64,000 bases of DNA from Desulfobacteraceae bacterium (lineage in GTDB: Bacteria > Desulfobacterota > Desulfobacteria > Desulfobacterales > JALSRD01): contig JAMOVG010000027.1 in NCBI GenBank assembly GCA_027061725.1, positions 2,416 to 66,415 of the forward strand. The letters are read 5' to 3'. Shown piece after piece: positions 8,742 to 60,887 of this stretch. The position numbers were made by a program, and so were the translations under genes. The notes beneath the pieces were generated by a model. It saw nothing but the letters and a program-made list of their open reading frames with translations, was not told the origin of the DNA and ran no database searches. Numbering within the stretch: the stretch's first letter is position 1; the number at the start of each line of letters is the position of its first letter.

Positions 8742-10567
8742 GGCTGCCGCGCCGCCCCCAGGGCCGTGTCGACCCCCAGCAGGAATCGTGTGAAGGCCGC
8801 CGGGTGGCGCTGCACCGTACCGCTGACCGCCCGGGCGAGCTGCGCGGCACACGCCTCCCACCGCGGCTCTCCGGTGAGGCCCGAGAGGTGCAGCAGGTTC
8901 TGGTACGCCACCGAGTTGGCCGAGGGAATGGCGCCGTCATAGATTTCTTTGGGCCGCACGGGCAGGTCGTGCTGGTCGGCGGGGGTCATGAAAAAAGCGC
9001 CCTGCCGCTCATCCCAAAAATCCGCCAGCATCTCTTGCTGCAGCCGCACGGCGGTCTGCAGCCAGCGCTCGTCGGAAGCGGCGCGGTGGAGTTCCAGCAG
9101 CCCGTAAATCAGGAAGGCGTAATCTTCGGCGTGGGCGCGGATGGCGGCCTGCCCGTCGCGGAACCGGTGCAGCAGACGGCCGCGGCGGTCCGTGAGGCGC
9201 GCCAGCACCCATTCGGCCGCCCGCGCGGCGGCGTCCAGGTAAGCGGCGTCCTGCAGCACACGGCCGCCCTTGGCCAGCGCGGCGATCATCAGTCCGTTCC
9301 AGTCGGTGAGGATCTTGTCGTCCCGGAGGGGGGGGATGCGTTTTTGGCGGGCACCAAAGAGCTTCTGCCGGACGCTTCGCCACTGCCCCTCCAGTTCTTC
9401 AGCCGTCACACCCAGTTCGGCGGCCCACTGCGCCAGGGGGCGTTTCAGGTGCGCGATGTTCTCGCCGGTGCGGCCGCCGCCGGCTTCCTCGCGGAAATTG
9501 CCGCCCGCTTCAAATCCCAGGATGGCGGCCCAGCGGGCGCCGTCGCGTTCTCCCAGCACCGCCCTGAACTCCTGTTCGGTCCACAGGTAGAACTTGCCCT
9601 CGCGGCCCTCGCTGTCGGCGTCTTCGGCGGTGAAGAAGCCTCCCTCGGCGTCGGTCATATCCCGCAGCACATAGGTGAAGATCTCCCGCGCCGTTCGCCC
9701 GAATCCGTCCTGCCCGGTGGCCGCCAAAGCCTCCAGGTAGGCCTCGGCCAGCAGGGCCTGGTCGTAGAGCATCTTTTCAAAGTGCGGCAGCAGCCAGCGC
9801 TCGTCGGTGGAATACCGGTGAAACCCGAACCCCACGTGGTCCCAGATGCCGCCGCGGCGCATGGCGTCCAGGGTGTGTGTGACCACCTCAAGCGACTTGC
9901 GGTCGCCCGTGCGGCGGTGCTGCCGCAGCAGCAGCTGCAGGCGGTGGGGCAGCGGGAACTTGGGGGCCGGCAGAAAACCGCCGTGGCGCGGATCATACTC
10001 CGTGTGCAGCCGGTCCACGGCCGCCTGCAGCAGATCCCCGGTGGGATCGCCGCCGGGCACGAAATCAAAGGATTTCACCCAGCGCTCGCGGATGGCAGTC
10101 ACCGAATCCATTACCCGGGTGCGCTCGGTGCGCCACAGCTTGTCGATCTGGCGGCAGAGTTGCTGCAGCCCGGGGCGGCCGAAGCGGTTTTCCCGGGGGA
10201 TATAGGTGGCTGCCAGGAAAGGCTCCCGCTCCGGCGTCATGAAGATCGACAGGGGCCAGCCGCCGCTGCCGCTGATGAGCTGGCAGGCCGCCATGTAGAC
10301 GGCATCAATGTCGGCGCGCTCCTCGCGGTCCACCTTGATGCAGACGAAGGTATCGTTGAGCAGCTCCGCCGTGCGGGGGTCTTCGAAGGATTCGCGCTCC
10401 ATGACGTGACACCAGTGGCAGGTGGCGTAGCCGATGGACACAAAGACCGGCTTGTCCGCCCGCCGGGCGACCTCGAAAGCCTCCGCCGACCATGGATACC
10501 AGTCCACCGGGTTTTCGGCGTGCTGCAGCAGGTAGGGGCTTTTTTCGTGAATCAATCGATTGGGCAT
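8738..10567 (-). CDS. Thioredoxin-domain protein of the YyaL/DUF255 (SSP411-like) family
   Basis: The N-terminus [52 protein letters not shown] is diagnostic. The C-terminal part is a long alpha/alpha-toroid-like region. Confidence 0.85.
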
Positions 10568-10729
10568 GCGAAATCCCCTCCAGGCCTGCCGCCCAACTGC
10601 CGCCAGGGGGCATGAACCGGCCGCGTTTCAAATCCATTTTTCACCCGCCGGCATTCTGCAGGCGGTGGGAACAATCCTCCAGGACCATGGCCCTTTATCT
10701 CCCGGGGCGGGCCCCGGCGGCGGTGGGGT

Positions 10730-11272
10730 TCAGAAAGTTTCCAGGTGGGTAAACTCGGCGACTTCCCGGCGGCCAGGATCGCGGGAAGGCTTGGCCGGGT
10801 ACCCCAGCGGAATCAAGGCCACCACCTCCACGCCTTCGGGCGCCTTGAGAATGCGGGCGGCGCGGTCATGGTCGAAAAGCCCGACGATCACCGTGCCCAG
10901 GCCCAGATCGTGGGCCGTCAGGCAAAGGTTCTGGGCGGCCAGCCCCAGGTCGAACATGAACCAGTCGCCAAACTTGGTGGTCACCTGATCTTTGTAGTAG
11001 CCGGAGCGCTTCAGGCGCGCGCACAGGGCCAGCACCACCGGGGCGTCGGACACCGCACGGGTAGCCGGGTTCTTTGCAGAAACGGTTTCGGCCAGCGCTT
11101 TTTTGATCTGCGGATCTTTGACCACCACCACTTCCCAGCACTGCGTGTTGGCCCACGAGGGCGCCCAGCGCACCGCCTCCAGTACCTGCCGGAGCAGCGC
11201 CTCGGGCACCTCCCGCTCCTGGAACCTTCGGACGCTGCGCCGCTGTCGGATGATTTGCTCGAGATGGGTCAT
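10730..11272 (-). CDS. Nitroreductase-family protein
   Basis: RRSVRRFQEREVP...APSWANTQCWEVVVV is a typical nitroreductase N-terminus. Confidence 0.8.
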   Translation of the reverse strand: MTHLEQIIRQRRSVRRFQEREVPEALLRQVLEAVRWAPSWANTQCWEVVVVKDPQIKKALAETVSAKNPATRAVSDAPVVLALCARLKRSGYYKDQVTTKFGDWFMFDLGLAAQNLCLTAHDLGLGTVIVGLFDHDRAARILKAPEGVEVVALIPLGYPAKPSRDPGRREVAEFTHLETF

Positions 11273-12195
11273 GAATGTTCCCTCCCTTTATGGTCCGTTG
11301 TCTGCACCAGGTCCCTGAGCGCTTCGTCGATGCGGGCAAAGCGGAATCGGAAGCCCTCTTCCAGCAGGCGTCGGGGGACAACGCGCTGACTGGCCAGCAT
11401 CGTGGAGGCCACCTCCCCCATGAGTGCTCGCAGCATGAAGGTCGGCGCCGGCATGCGTGACGGCCGCCGGAGCACCCGTCCCAGGGTTTCGGCCAGTTCG
11501 CGGCTGGTCACCGGGTATGGTGCGCAGAAATTGAACACGCCCCGGCGCTGCGCGCCTTCCATGAGGAAAAATACGGCCCGCACCAGATCGTGCATGTGAA
11601 TCCACGGCATCCACTGGGTTCCCCTGCCCAGGGGGCCGCCCATGAACAGGCGGAAAGCCGGCAGCATGCGCTCCATGGCGCCGCCGCCGCTTCCGAGCAC
11701 CACCCCGAAACGCATGACGGCCACCCGCACCCCTCTGCCGGCCGCATCCAGGGCCGCAGCTTCCCACTCGCGGCTGACGCCGGCCAGGAAATCATCGCCG
11801 GGCGGTTCGTCCTCGGTCAGCACGTCGTCTCCGCGGTCCCCGTAGTATCCCACCGCCGAGGTGCTGAGCAGCACGGCGCCGGGCCGCAGGCGCTGGGCAA
11901 CGTGACGGGTGGTGCGCACGCGGCTGTCCCGTATTTCGCGCTTATAGGCCGGTGTCCAGCGCTTGAGAATGGTTCTGCCCGCCAGGTTGACGACCAGGTC
12001 GGCCCGCTCGGCCTCCACCTGCCAGTCCCCCGGGCGGCTGGTGTCGGCCGACCGGTAGCGGTAGCGCTCGTGCGAGACCGCCTGCGCGGGGTGCCGCCGC
12101 AGCCCGATGGCGGTCACCTCGTGGCCTTTTTCCAGCAGGGCGACGCACACATGGTGGCCCACGAAGCCCGTTCCGCCGGTGACCAGAATACGCAT
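11269..12195 (-). CDS. NAD-dependent epimerase-family protein (YfcH-like, with DUF1731-type C-terminus)
   Basis: MRILVTGGTGFVGHHV is a Rossmann motif and GGGGAGA lies upstream of ATG 12195. The stop overlaps the nitroreductase start (ATGA). Confidence 0.8.
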   Translation of the reverse strand: MRILVTGGTGFVGHHVCVALLEKGHEVTAIGLRRHPAQAVSHERYRYRSADTSRPGDWQVEAERADLVVNLAGRTILKRWTPAYKREIRDSRVRTTRHVAQRLRPGAVLLSTSAVGYYGDRGDDVLTEDEPPGDDFLAGVSREWEAAALDAAGRGVRVAVMRFGVVLGSGGGAMERMLPAFRLFMGGPLGRGTQWMPWIHMHDLVRAVFFLMEGAQRRGVFNFCAPYPVTSRELAETLGRVLRRPSRMPAPTFMLRALMGEVASTMLASQRVVPRRLLEEGFRFRFARIDEALRDLVQTTDHKGREHS

Positions 12196-57388: not shown

Positions 57389-58535
57389 ATTCGATCTCAT
57401 CATCGTGGGCGCCGGTTCGGTGGGCGTACCCACGGCCCTGGCCTGCGCCGAGGCGGGCCTCAAGGCCCTGGTGCTGGACAGGCGCCCCTCGCCGGGACAG
57501 GGCGAGAACAAGCACGCCATCGGCGGCATCCGCGCCACGCACTCCGACCCGGCCAAGATTCTGGTCTGCCACCGCTCGCTGGAGATCTTCTCCACTTGGC
57601 AGGACCTGCACGGCGACGATATCGAGTGGCAGCGGGGCGGGTATGTGTTTCCCGTCTACCGGGAAGAAGAGGAAAGGCTGCTCAAGACCTTCCTGCCGGA
57701 ACAGAAAAAGTTCGGCCTCAACATCGACTTCGTCGACCCGCAGACCATCGCCTCCGTGGTGCCCGGCATCAACCCCGACGGGCTGCGGGGCGGGACGGTC
57801 TCTCCCGATGACGGTTCGGCCTCACCGCTGCTGGCCGTCAACGCCTTCTACCGCAGGGCCGTCCGGCTGGGCGTGGAATTCCGGTTCAACGTCCAGGTGC
57901 AGCAGATCCTCCGGGAAAAGGGCGCCGTCCAGGGAGTACGGACCTCTGCGGGCCGCTTTTCCGCGCCGGTAGTGGTCGATGCCGCCGGTGCCGACTCCCG
58001 GGAGCTCTCCGCCGCCCTGGGCTGCGACATCGCCGTGACCCCCGAATCCCACGAGGCCGGCATCAGCGAACCGGTGCAGATGTTCTGCCCCGCCATGGTG
58101 GTCGACCTGCGGCCGGCGCCGGGATCGCGCAACTACTATTTCTACCAGAACCGGCACGGCCAGGTGGTTTTCTGCATCACGCCGGAGCCGCCCCTGGTGG
58201 GCCACGACTACCGCGAGACGTCCGGTTTCCTGCCCCAGGTCTGCGCACGCATGGTGGACCTCATGCCGCGGCTGAAAAACCTGCGGGTGCGCCGGGTGTG
58301 GCGCGGGCTTTACCCCATGACAGCCGACGGCGTCCCGCTGGTGGGCTGGAACCGGGACGCTTCCGGGCTGCTGCACGCCGTGGGCATGTGCGGTCAGGGG
58401 TTCATGCTTGGCCCCGGCCTCGGTGAACTGCTGGCGCGCATGATCACAGGCGCCTCCACCGCCGACGACCGCGTTGTACTGGCGGGTTTTTCCCTTTACC
58501 GCGACCTCACTTGTGGCATGGAGGCCCTGAAGTAG
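57381..58535 (+). CDS. FAD-dependent oxidoreductase (DAO family; sarcosine oxidase beta / proline dehydrogenase beta-like)
   Basis: The motif FDLIIVGAGSVGVPTALACAEAG is present. Its start overlaps the end of the upstream gene. Confidence 0.8.
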   Translation: MNKFDLIIVGAGSVGVPTALACAEAGLKALVLDRRPSPGQGENKHAIGGIRATHSDPAKILVCHRSLEIFSTWQDLHGDDIEWQRGGYVFPVYREEEERLLKTFLPEQKKFGLNIDFVDPQTIASVVPGINPDGLRGGTVSPDDGSASPLLAVNAFYRRAVRLGVEFRFNVQVQQILREKGAVQGVRTSAGRFSAPVVVDAAGADSRELSAALGCDIAVTPESHEAGISEPVQMFCPAMVVDLRPAPGSRNYYFYQNRHGQVVFCITPEPPLVGHDYRETSGFLPQVCARMVDLMPRLKNLRVRRVWRGLYPMTADGVPLVGWNRDASGLLHAVGMCGQGFMLGPGLGELLARMITGASTADDRVVLAGFSLYRDLTCGMEALK

Positions 58536-58549
58536 ATTCCGATTTTCCC

Positions 58550-58578
58550 TTGACACAACGTGGCACTTTGCATACATT
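58550..58578 (+). promoter_or_regulatory. Sigma-70-like promoter candidate (TTGACA-17 nt-TACATT) upstream of the Sec-peptide gene
   Basis: TTGACA is at 58550-58555 and TACATT at 58573-58578. It sits in the intergenic gap after the stop at 58535 and would give a leader of about 200 nt. Confidence 0.45.
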
Positions 58579-58783
58579 ATATTTGAAGCGAAGTTTTCCG
58601 ACCAGCGAGATTTCACAATGCCCCGTGCGGGCGGTCCCCTAATTTCTCTGTTTTCGGTGCTTTTTCAAAAGTTCCCCAACGAATGATGCCAAACACACTG
58701 GCCGCAGTGTCTCAGGGCAGCCGTCTCCACGCGGATCCTGAAAGGCCGTTTCCACCCCTAACCCTTTGGAACAGGAGGGCACA

Positions 58784-59137
58784 ATGGACAGCAGGGATAT
58801 CAAGAAATACCTTGCCGGATTGAGCATTGCCGGATTGATCAGCCTGGGCGGCTTCACGCTGCCGGGCGCGATGGCCGGCAGCAGCTGAGGTGCACAACCT
58901 AGTGCAGGTAGCACTAAAGTTGAAAAGCCCGCATCGGGCAGCAGCTGAGGCGGCCAAGGCAGCGGTGCCGTGAGCACCGAAGAGACCACGAAGGAAGCCG
59001 AGGAAGCCGCCGAAGAAGTCCAGAAAGAGTCCGGGAAAAGCGGCTGAGGGTCCAGCACCGACAGTGCAGTTGGCACTGACACGAAAAAAGAAGAAGACAA
59101 CAAGAAAGAATCCGGGAAAAGCGGCTGAGGCGGATGA
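58784..59137 (+). CDS. Putative multi-selenocysteine RiPP precursor peptide (SbtA-like), 117 codons with four in-frame UGA
   Basis: AGGAGG at 58773-58778 is followed 5 nt later by ATG 58784. In-frame TGA codons occur at 58886, 58946, 59045 and 59126, all in an S/G-S/G-U-G context. No TAA or TAG occurs in frame until 59285. A SECIS-like hairpin follows each UGA. The N-terminus is signal/leader-like (MDSRDIKKYLAGLSIAGLISLGGFTLPGAMA). A radical SAM/SPASM gene lies immediately downstream. Confidence 0.6.
58900..58916 (+). promoter_or_regulatory. SECIS-like hairpin 1 (UAGUGC-AGGUA-GCACUA)
   Basis: It is a 17-nt hairpin starting exactly 11 nt after UGA-1. It can be extended by CAAC/GUUG (58894-58924). 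Confidence 0.5.
58963..58979 (+). promoter_or_regulatory. SECIS-like hairpin 2 (CGGUGC-CGUGA-GCACCG)
   Basis: It is a 17-nt hairpin starting 14 nt after UGA-2. It shares the GUGC-N5-GCAC core of hairpins 1 and 3. Confidence 0.5.
59022..59130 (+). repeat. 28-nt direct repeat pair (1 mismatch) carrying UGA-3 and UGA-4, period 81 nt
   Basis: AGAAAGA[G/A]TCCGGGAAAAGCGGCTGAGG occurs at 59022-59049 and 59103-59130. A separate 14-nt exact pair GGCAGCAGCTGAGG at 58877-58890 and 58937-58950 carries UGA-1 and UGA-2 with a period of 60 nt. Confidence 0.9.
59062..59078 (+). promoter_or_regulatory. SECIS-like hairpin 3 (CAGUGC-AGUUG-GCACUG)
   Basis: It is a 17-nt perfect hairpin starting 14 nt after UGA-3. 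Confidence 0.5.
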
Positions 59138-59142
59138 TGTTA

Positions 59143-59161
59143 CCGGCGCCGGCGGCGCCGG
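59143..59161 (+). promoter_or_regulatory. GC hairpin 4 (CCGGCGCC-GGC-GGCGCCGG) after UGA-4
   Basis: It has an 8-bp perfect stem and starts 14 nt after UGA-4. Its core sequence differs from hairpins 1-3. Confidence 0.4.
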
Positions 59162-59239
59162 AAAAACACACTCAGCAAAACGGCCGGTTTGCCAGATTCC
59201 GCTGCGGTCGACGGATTCCCGTTCGGATGATGTTTGCCA

Positions 59240-59272
59240 GGAGCCGGCGTCCCCCCGGGGGATCCCGGCTCC
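59240..59272 (+). terminator. Strong hairpin followed by CCUGUUUU, between the precursor and maturase genes (possible leaky terminator)
   Basis: GGAGCCGG...CCGGCTCC forms the outer stem and TCCCC/GGGGA the inner stem. TGTTTT follows and the maturase ATG lies 41 nt downstream. Confidence 0.4.
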
Positions 59273-59312
59273 CCTGTTTTGCAATAACGCCACTCGCCTA
59301 CCAGAGGCCCTC

Positions 59313-60887
59313 ATGAAACCGCTGCCCGATGAGATCCGGTCCGCCTACCCGGTCTGCAGCCGGCTGCTGGCCGAAGAACCGCTGCCCCCGGACGGGCCGG
59401 CACCCACCGTCGAAGACCTGCCCCGAAGGCTCGCCGCCACGCCTGCGGCACTGAAACGCCACCCCTACCTGGCCGACCTGGCCCGCATCGAACAGGCCAT
59501 TCACAAACTGAGCACGGACCCGCCGGGCATCCCCTCCCGCGTGGACCGGCTGCGTCTCAACCCCGCGCTGGTGCTGCTGCCGGTGTCCTGGCAGCGCCTG
59601 CCGGAACGCCTCCAGGACGATCGGGCCGCCCCGGCACCCGTGCCAAACGGCTTCGTGCTGGTCTGGAAAGCGCCCGGCTCAGGGCGCGTTCGCGCCGCCA
59701 CGGCCGACGGGCACGACCTGCTGGCGCTGAAAATCGTCAGCGAGGCAATCGCCCCCCGGCAGGCGGCCGAGGATGGCGGTGTGTCCCTGGGTACCATCGA
59801 CAACATTCTTTACGCCGCCAGCCAGCGCGGCCTGCTGCTGGCACCCCCCTCGCGCATCGTACGCCCACCGGCGTTCGGCCGGGAAGCCGTCGACGGCGAC
59901 CAATTCCGCGTCGCCAGGTGTTTCACCCTCCAGTGGCACATTACCCAGGCCTGCGACCTGCACTGCCGCCACTGCTACGACCGCAGCGACCGCCAGCCCC
60001 TGCCGCTGGTAGAGGCCTTGCGGGTGCTGGACGATCTCTACGATTTCTGCCAGCGAATGCACGTTTACGGCCAGGTCACCTTCACCGGTGGAAACCCCTT
60101 GCTCTACCCCCATTTTGACGAGGTCTACCGCCAGAGCGCGGAGCGCGGCTTCCTGACCGCCGTGCTGGGCAACCCCATGCCACGCCGGCGCATCGAAACC
60201 CTGCTACGCATCCAGGATCTCGAGTTCTACCAGGTCAGCCTGGAGGGCCTGGCCGAACACAACGACTACATTCGCGGCCCCGGCCATTTTCAGCGCACCA
60301 TGGCTTTCCTGGACGTGCTGCGTGAGCTGAACGTCAGCACCATGGTCATGCTGACCCTGACCGATGCCAACATGGGCCAGGTACTGCCGCTGGCCGAACG
60401 GCTGCGCGGGCGCACCGGCGTGTTCACCTTCAACCGGCTCTCGCCCGTGGGCGAAGGCGCCGACCTGTCGCCGGCCGGCACCGGGCGCTACCGCGCCTTC
60501 CTGGAAGACTACCTGCGGGCCGCGCGCAACAATCCCGCCATGCGCCTCAAGGACAACCTCTTCAACATCCTGCTGCACGAGAGGGGGGAGCCCTTTTTCG
60601 GCGGCTGCGCCGGCTTTGGCTGCGGGGCGGCCTTCAACTTCGTCTCCCTGTTGCCCGACGGCGAAGTGCACGCCTGCCGCAAACTGCCCTCGCTGATCGG
60701 CAACATCCGGGAGCGTTCGCTCTACGACATCTACCGCGACGCACCGGCCCGGCGATTCCGCGCCGGCAGCAAGGCCTGCCGCGGCTGCGCCATCCGGCCG
60801 GTGTGCGGCGGGTGCCTGGCCGTGAGCCACGGCAGCGGGCTGAACATCTTCAGGGAACGCGACCCTTACTGCTTCATGGAAAAATAG
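59313..60887 (+). CDS. Radical SAM/SPASM-domain peptide maturase with roughly 200-aa N-terminal extension (SbtM-like)
   Basis: I trimmed the start to ATG 59313. The CX3CX2C motif CDLHCRHC is at 59952-59975 and TFTGGNPLL is present. The C-terminal SPASM-type Cys motifs are GGCAGFGCGA, HACRKL and CRGCAIRPVCGGC. Confidence 0.8.
   Translation: MKPLPDEIRSAYPVCSRLLAEEPLPPDGPAPTVEDLPRRLAATPAALKRHPYLADLARIEQAIHKLSTDPPGIPSRVDRLRLNPALVLLPVSWQRLPERLQDDRAAPAPVPNGFVLVWKAPGSGRVRAATADGHDLLALKIVSEAIAPRQAAEDGGVSLGTIDNILYAASQRGLLLAPPSRIVRPPAFGREAVDGDQFRVARCFTLQWHITQACDLHCRHCYDRSDRQPLPLVEALRVLDDLYDFCQRMHVYGQVTFTGGNPLLYPHFDEVYRQSAERGFLTAVLGNPMPRRRIETLLRIQDLEFYQVSLEGLAEHNDYIRGPGHFQRTMAFLDVLRELNVSTMVMLTLTDANMGQVLPLAERLRGRTGVFTFNRLSPVGEGADLSPAGTGRYRAFLEDYLRAARNNPAMRLKDNLFNILLHERGEPFFGGCAGFGCGAAFNFVSLLPDGEVHACRKLPSLIGNIRERSLYDIYRDAPARRFRAGSKACRGCAIRPVCGGCLAVSHGSGLNIFRERDPYCFMEK

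Follow-up and report, generated by a model that had tools for sequence, protein, structure and literature searches.

A selenobiotic peptide maturase of a Desulfobacteraceae bacterium, SbtM, carries a fused, probable docking module and looks like an anaerobic counterpart of MNIO thiooxazole enzymes

Close to the end of a 64,000-nucleotide stretch of a Desulfobacteraceae contig (JAMOVG010000027.1; the whole stretch is called the window here) a radical S-adenosylmethionine (SAM)/SPASM protein is encoded beside the gene of a small peptide which contains selenocysteine (Sec). The locus raises the question which enzyme this is and what its first 200 or so residues are for. An original prediction, made from the nucleotide letters alone, considered these residues as a peptide-recognition extension and the gene pair as a minimal two-gene system. 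As detailed below, the gene is very probably sbtM, the maturase of the two-gene SbtA/SbtM system of peptides made on ribosomes and modified post-translationally (RiPPs), equipped with an N-terminal docking module. Beyond this, SbtA/SbtM looks like an anaerobic radical-SAM counterpart of the thiooxazole metallophore systems that employ oxidative enzymes which depend on multinuclear non-heme iron (MNIOs), with the docking module fused to the enzyme. The two genes are:

sbtM: 59313..60887, + strand, 524-residue thio(seleno)oxazole-forming radical SAM/SPASM maturase; stop codon 60885-60887
sbtA precursor: 58784-59137, + strand, substrate gene directly upstream of sbtM; stop TGA at 59135

The identity was established by TIGR04082, the NCBIfam equivalog model of SbtM, which scored 682.5 bits against a cut-off of 350 and aligned residues 12-521 with model positions 2-516 of 516. 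A profile search of the whole genome retrieved a single copy with the same match. Because the match spans the full length, the approximately 200 N-terminal residues are part of the SbtM family definition. Thus, the 'extension' is present as predicted, but it is not peculiar to this gene since TIGR04082 covers it end to end. The other hallmarks of the family were found as well: the CX3CX2C and SPASM cysteines, an adjoining SbtA and Sec-insertion genes in the host. In a word-indexed search of 5.8 billion proteins 8000 candidates were scored and 3204 matched with E <= 1e-10. The best 120 of these 3204 homologues were 497-562 amino acids long, had 55-88 % identity and covered 90-100 % of the query; several were named SbtM or "selenobiotic family peptide radical SAM maturase". 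Identity to most of the listed database members was only 55-62 %. By its sequence, then, the gene is an ordinary member of an already named, curated and biochemically characterised family and not a new enzyme. The original prediction had overlooked that this family has a name, SbtM (TIGR04082), and was characterised (PMC9204691). For annotation this means that the gene name is sbtM and that the 'extension' is not to be flagged as anomalous.

Could the protein belong to a different radical SAM/SPASM family, such as the anaerobic sulfatase-maturating enzymes (anSME), the sactipeptide or ranthipeptide synthases or the ACGX system, the adjacent Sec-peptide being coincidental? Partial matches to other SPASM families were obtained (ACGX system 154 bits, mycofactocin maturase 81 bits). 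They were limited to residues ~200-522 and remained far below the families' own cut-offs of 265-850 bits, whereas TIGR04082 reached nearly twice its cut-off and was the sole model to cover the N-terminus. In addition, the pairing of peptide and enzyme recurs among otherwise unrelated neighbours. Judged by the NCBIfam profile scores, this alternative appears effectively refuted, and we give it practically no credence; an unrelated radical SAM family, against which the original prediction had asked its proposal to be checked, is not the case.

The start codon is ATG 59313. The 88 %-identical orthologue P0003 begins at the same methionine, and the opening of the TIGR04082 alignment at residue 12 is consistent with this start. 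A GTG-started reading of 607 residues (59064) was discarded: it overlaps sbtA, and the orthologues begin at ATG, none of them using GTG. All radical SAM, GGNP, SPASM and N-terminal strings which had been quoted for a 524-residue reading frame were located in the translation. SbtM consists of three parts, a two-lobed N-terminal module, a radical-SAM core with the CX3CX2C motif and a SPASM domain. The motif CDLHCRHC corresponds to C214-X3-C218-X2-C221, and GGNP comprises residues 259-262. In the C-terminal part GGCAGFGCGA is located at 430-439, HACRKL at 453-458 and CRGCAIRPVCGGC at 489-501; the SPASM-region cysteines are C432, C437-X12-G-X4-C455, C489-X2-C492-X5-C498-X2-C501 and C520. Among 60 homologues none of the 11 cysteines in the radical-SAM and SPASM motifs varies, nor do the GGNP residues. 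Pfam placed Radical_SAM (PF04055, 53.9 bits) at residues 210-361 and SPASM (PF13186, 35.4 bits) at 437-492; the SPASM-type NCBIfam model TIGR04085 gave 37.4 bits. With Radical_SAM confined to 210-361 and residues 1-204 empty, the first 200 or so residues are indeed devoid of a radical SAM motif, as had been claimed. The catalytic part is divided as follows:

radical SAM core: 59913..60599, + strand, residues ~201-429; PF04055; fold matches CteB, SkfB, SuiB, PqqE and anSME
SPASM domain: 60600..60875, + strand, residues ~430-521; PF13186 and TIGR04085; eight invariant cysteines

From the cysteine pattern of the SPASM domain two auxiliary [4Fe-4S] clusters are predicted. Purified SbtM had an Fe/S content sufficient for three [4Fe-4S] clusters (PMC9204691).

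What, then, is the N-terminal module? A full-length AlphaFold2 (AF2) model, based on an alignment of 60 homologues, had a predicted local distance difference test score (pLDDT) of 90.8 and a predicted template-modelling score (pTM) of 0.89. Residues 1-195 alone had a pLDDT of 93.5, and both models show the same layout, in which a helical lobe precedes a lobe of the RiPP recognition element (RRE) type:

N-terminal helical lobe: 59313..59552, + strand, residues 1 to ~80; AF2 helices 6-11, 13-21, 36-42 and 53-68
RRE-type winged-helix lobe: 59559..59837, + strand, residues ~83-175; from AF2 and Foldseek
linker: 59838..59912, + strand, residues ~176-200; P178, S180 and R184 conserved; pLDDT lower, 60-84

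The helical lobe contains the motif HPYLADLARIE, in which L56 and E60 are invariant among the homologues. The winged-helix lobe is composed of beta86-94, beta108-119, beta126-130, alpha133-143, alpha148-155 and alpha159-172 (AF2; pLDDT 94-98). This is the secondary structure expected of an RRE-type domain, with a short helix 96-101 inserted after beta1. L136-K140 (LLALK), part of the conserved motif HDLLALK, are invariant or nearly so. In Foldseek the N-terminal model matched TglI, chain A of the TglHI holoenzyme (8hci_A and 8hi7), with E 7e-6 and TMq 0.58 over 206 columns. The 268-residue chain A of 8hci was identified as TglI because chain D is the 304-residue DUF692 (MNIO) subunit; TglI is also present in 8hi7 (PMC12452194). 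In TglI, as in NGO1945, a helical domain of the DUF2063 type precedes an RRE-type domain (PMC12452194). Because PDB sequence searches with the N-terminal profile and with DUF2063 profiles gave nothing meaningful, the link to TglI is one of fold comparison only. The lasso-peptide RRE TbiB1 with bound leader (5v1u) was a moderate match (probability 0.96-0.99, target-normalised TM 0.56-0.63). The full-length model was closest to CteB, SkfB and SuiB (396-474 columns, compared with ~331-357 for PqqE, BlsE and anSME). CteB, SkfB and SuiB carry an N-terminal peptide-binding domain of the RRE type. Taken as predicted folds, the AF2 winged helix, TbiB1 at a probability of 0.99, the TglI match and the three best full-length relatives all speak for the RRE-like extension which had been proposed from the letters.

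In the SbtM homologues of three genomes (G032, G230 and G257) the TIGR04082 match begins at model position 102-107. By this alignment the helical lobe is divergent or missing in these lineages and the RRE lobe is kept.

The relationship between the module and the partner proteins of MNIO enzymes was examined with profiles. The partner set consisted of DUF2063 proteins of four genomes of the same phylum, enlarged by protein search. With hhalign, the SbtM N-terminal alignment matched the DUF2063 partner alignments with a probability of 95.9 % and E ~6e-9, pairing SbtM residues 12/15-123/141 with partner positions ~69/90-211/215. The controls, i.e. the reversed and ten column-shuffled partner alignments, had E >= 0.19. 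The motifs P(F/Y)LxDLAxLE and L-R-x-x-P...W are common to SbtM and the DUF2063 partners. In an exhaustive HMMER search with the N-terminal profile 1.8 billion representatives yielded 315 proteins, mostly SbtM fragments. Thirteen of the 315 were standalone proteins of 234-290 amino acids that matched through their C-terminal ~150 residues (66-96 bits in twelve, 142 bits in P0193). PF09836 was located directly ahead of the matching region in all ten standalone proteins scanned, and in four of four contigs retrieved the standalone gene directly followed an MNIO gene. Two of these proteins matched TIGR04082 positions 27-173 (E 4e-19 and 8e-22) and also the HvfC model NF050145. In a maximum-likelihood tree 28 SbtM modules formed one clade (100/99) and grouped with the close partners versus generic DUF2063 (100/100). 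Because the close partners had been picked for their similarity to SbtM, only the monophyly of SbtM is independent evidence from the tree. On the strength of profiles and predicted folds we conclude that the SbtM module (~1-175) is homologous to the post-DUF2063 part of the DUF2063/HvfC/TglI-type MNIO partners.

A profile search of the window's genome, which is 97.6 % complete, gave no match for PF05114 (MNIO) and PF09836 (DUF2063). Therefore, the radical-SAM domain fused to the module must be the one that it serves. For the same reasons, fusion to radical SAM and a genome without MNIO, it is a relative and not a member of the MNIO partner family. The link between the SbtM N-terminus and MNIO partners was not found in literature mentioning SbtM, DUF2063 or HvfC, the primary SbtM paper not being covered.

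A winged helix invites another explanation, namely that the extension binds DNA and autoregulates its own operon. The Pfam label of DUF2063 actually is 'putative DNA-binding domain', and weak Foldseek matches to helix-turn-helix regulators (DeoR, DosR, LuxR-type, AsnC) were obtained, covering only 41-66 columns with E 0.27-1.6. By far the best fold matches, however, are the peptide-handling TglI and TbiB1, and the standalone homologues are encoded beside MNIO enzymes and precursor peptides. Further, an older prediction that NGO1945 binds DNA has been superseded (PMC12452194), and regulators are not typically fused to FeS enzymes. A DNA-binding role is thus highly improbable.

Several results weigh against a docking module of RRE type which is derived from MNIO partners. 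In residues 1-204 no Pfam family, including PqqD (PF05402) and DUF2063 (PF09836), was detected at E <= 10, and an NCBIfam scan of residues 1-195 returned TIGR04082 alone, with no match to HvfC (NF050145). Of the profile searches which the original prediction had proposed, those for radical SAM, SPASM and the selenobiotic maturase (TIGR04082) thus matched, but those with PqqD and RRE models did not. PF09836 is unmatched because the N-terminal segment that it models is missing in SbtM. The Foldseek E of TbiB1 was only 0.035-0.13, a modest match to a canonical RRE. The grouping of SbtM with partners in the tree is partly built in by the choice of the close set. An HMM comparison of SbtA with MNIO precursors revealed no link. 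Finally, bufferin precursors are modified even without their signal peptide (PMC11626156), i.e. recognition involves the core.

The last point also favours a different role of the module: it could be a structural or activating subunit, or it could read the core motif S-G-U-G and not, as a classical RRE, the leader. In line with this, RREs associated with DUF2063 yielded no defined recognition motif in a 2025 survey (PMC12710340), and the most conserved SbtM residues are in alpha1 (HDLLALK) and in PYLxDLARIE of the helical lobe, not obviously in beta3. On the other side, conservation of the first 27 SbtA residues suffices for a curated HMM, and among orthologues the SbtA leaders resemble one another far more closely than a generic signal peptide would need to. 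This suggests a second constraint, e.g. docking. Altogether, we consider such a role as unlikely and prefer a docking module.

Through its first 27 residues, the family leader, SbtA matches TIGR04081 with 43-45 bits (cut-off 30.5). A signal-peptide-like N-terminus encloses this leader, with predicted cleavage after AMA at residue 31. The gene contains four in-frame UGA codons (58886, 58946, 59045 and 59126), all in S-[SG]-U-G contexts and each followed after 14-17 nt by a hairpin; the protein reads MDSRDIKKYLAGLSIAGLISLGGFTLPGAMA/GSS-U-G ... KSG-U-GG-stop. An Rfam scan of 58400-59500 gave no curated selenocysteine insertion sequence (SECIS) or other family above noise. Leader and AxA site are conserved in five SbtA sequences; the orthologues retain both (AxA as AMA, AQA, VQA or AHA), together with two to four S-G-U-G sites. 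In three of four MNIO loci the MNIO gene is preceded by a small open reading frame for a lipoprotein-type signal peptide and a Gly-rich core, with GSCGG motifs and the C-terminus ...SCGG(Q/N) before the stop. SbtA and the MNIO precursors are alike in design only.

How might the pair operate? The SbtM of Geobacter was reportedly characterised by the Bandarian laboratory. In this enzyme four hydrogens are lost from Cys/Sec in a Gly-Cys/Sec motif, with H-abstraction at the beta-carbon (PMC9204691), and the product is a thio- or seleno-oxazole (PMC9204691; PMC11002830). In the protein studied here the N-terminal module would dock SbtA via the conserved leader and/or the repeated S-G-U-G sites, and this would let the catalytic domain proceed through the four Sec sites. 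By the chemistry of the characterised relative, oxidation would take two rounds, 4 Da being lost, and Sec/Cys would cyclise with the preceding carbonyl to yield a 5-thio- or 5-seleno-oxazole. SbtA would be modified in the cytoplasm and then exported by the Sec pathway, with signal peptidase I cleaving at the conserved AxA. Such a route would account for the missing dedicated protease and exporter genes. Export of SbtA by general machinery is plausible in view of the bufferins, Sec-exported thiooxazole peptides made with a DUF2063-RRE partner, which set a precedent (PMC11626156). Bufferins, oxazolin and fontiphorin, all of MNIO/DUF2063 systems, are copper-chelating products in which Cys of a Sec-exported precursor has become 5-thiooxazole (PMC11626156; PMC12668002). 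By analogy to these three, SbtA probably yields a ligand of soft metals in the periplasm, which is the least secure step of the explanation. It provides a testable hypothesis for the function of SbtA peptides, namely that they are exported selenium-based metal ligands.

As to its origin, the module would descend from DUF2063/HvfC/TglI-type partners of O2-dependent MNIO thiooxazole enzymes, and SbtM, with this partner fused to it, would achieve the same chemistry independently of O2. More specifically, SbtA/SbtM may have arisen when the docking module of the MNIO-partner subgroup with GSCGG-repeat precursors, i.e. of partners of signal-peptide or lipoprotein precursors, was fused to a radical SAM/SPASM oxidase, which opened an O2-independent route. 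We propose this tentatively, as a serious possibility which is somewhat short of probable. If true, the catalytic domain was swapped while substrate design and recognition module were retained, and SbtA products would be periplasmic soft-metal chelators. The metal-binding 5-thio/seleno-oxazole peptides which aerobes produce by means of iron oxidases would then be accessible to strict anaerobes as well. Through the ancestry of the module, the radical-SAM thio(seleno)oxazole pathway found in anaerobes is connected with the MNIO/DUF2063 metallophore pathways of aerobes, a modest but real gain. In practical terms, residues ~1-180 define a construct boundary for binding and structural work.

Compared with the known SbtM/SbtA system (TIGR04082/TIGR04081) nothing essential differs here: the three-part architecture, the Cys motifs and the adjoining SbtA with Sec in Gly-flanked sites are the same, and that system is likewise a two-gene unit in Desulfobacterota-type anaerobes. 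The precursor in the window has four Sec sites versus two to four in the orthologues inspected, and the pair is situated between flavoprotein genes and the gene of pyruvate:ferredoxin oxidoreductase (PFOR). With the MNIO partners (DUF2063/HvfC/BufC/TglI; PF09836 plus RRE; NF050145; TglI in 8hci/8hi7, NGO1945 in 3dee) homology extends, by profile and predicted fold, over SbtM residues ~12-175, and both serve 5-thiooxazole makers acting on signal-peptide-bearing, Gly-rich precursors. Unlike these partners, SbtM lacks the first ~70-100 residues and its module is fused instead of standalone; the enzyme is a radical SAM/SPASM protein and not an O2-dependent MNIO, and the genome is without MNIO. CteB (5why/5wgg), SkfB (6efn) and SuiB (5v1q-t) share the order of peptide-binding domain, radical SAM core and SPASM at 16-19 % identity, yet they produce thioether or C-C cross-links whereas SbtM forms heterocycles. 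Their N-terminal domain is a single ~100-residue RRE, whereas the ~175-residue module of SbtM is two-lobed and of different ancestry. anSME (4k36/4k39) is also a SPASM radical SAM enzyme; it oxidises the Cys beta-carbon, and the same step has been proposed as the first half-reaction of SbtM (PMC9204691). An N-terminal docking module is absent from anSME, however, its substrates are sulfatases and its product is formylglycine.

In the window the pair is preceded by genes of a GntR/FCD regulator, a Fer2_4/Pyr_redox_2/BFD flavo-FeS protein and a DAO flavoprotein and is followed by PFOR. As had been predicted, neither a protease nor an exporter nor a separate PqqD gene is located beside sbtA-sbtM in the window. 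Six related loci were compared (L010, L012, L013, L014, L015 and L016). In the locus of the 88 % orthologue (L010) the neighbours are identical to those of the window. In that of a 75 %-identical orthologue a resistance-nodulation-division (RND) efflux trio (membrane fusion protein, RND pump and outer membrane efflux protein; L012:8601-14508) is inserted between sbtM and PFOR. Three Desulfobulbaceae loci (L013, L014, L016) have dihydrofolate reductase upstream of sbtM and rsmE, dtd and an M16 PreP-type peptidase of ~975 residues downstream (~8900-11970), and in L015 the neighbours are MscS and an Opp transporter. Gene calling gave an SbtA-like gene next to sbtM in four of these six; in L014 and L015 it gave none, the region not having been translated. 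No gene other than sbtA recurs with sbtM across the six loci. This supports a minimal two-gene system, in agreement with the original prediction.

Two neighbours were considered as dedicated accessory genes and rejected. First, the M16 PreP-type peptidase is located behind the housekeeping genes rsmE and dtd, and neither the window nor L010, L012 or L015 contains it; its arrangement in the three Desulfobulbaceae loci probably reflects lineage synteny rather than a dedicated leader protease. Second, the RND efflux trio was found in L012 only.

Of 301 genomes sampled from the phylum, 22 (19 of 200 genera) had an SbtM above the cut-off, and it was absent from the single genome of the same genus that was sampled (G145). 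The distribution thus is patchy even among close relatives.

Between sbtA and sbtM a further element is located:

terminator/attenuator-like hairpin with T-run: 59240-59282, + strand, 16-nt inverted repeat followed by CCTGTTTTG

The hairpin has 16-nt arms and a stability of -29.6 kcal/mol in context; acting as an attenuator, it may fix a high ratio of peptide to enzyme. A near-consensus sigma-70-like promoter (TTGACA-17-TACATT) is present at 58550-58578, just past the DAO flavoprotein gene and ~200 nt upstream of sbtA.

The capacity of the genome to insert Sec is indicated by a tRNA-Sec on contig C410 and by SelA (620.9 bits). The best match to SelB (contig C248:29493-30404) was partial, covering model positions 1-279 with 190.8 bits against a cut-off of 242, and the selB gene may be divergent or only partly matched. 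Outside the window ARAGORN identified a tRNA-Pyl (anticodon CTA; contig C75:9847-9917). In the locus of the 88 % orthologue a gene of the MTTB family (trimethylamine methyltransferase) is located ~7 kb downstream of sbtM (L010:16890-17575). The organism may use both selenocysteine and pyrrolysine.

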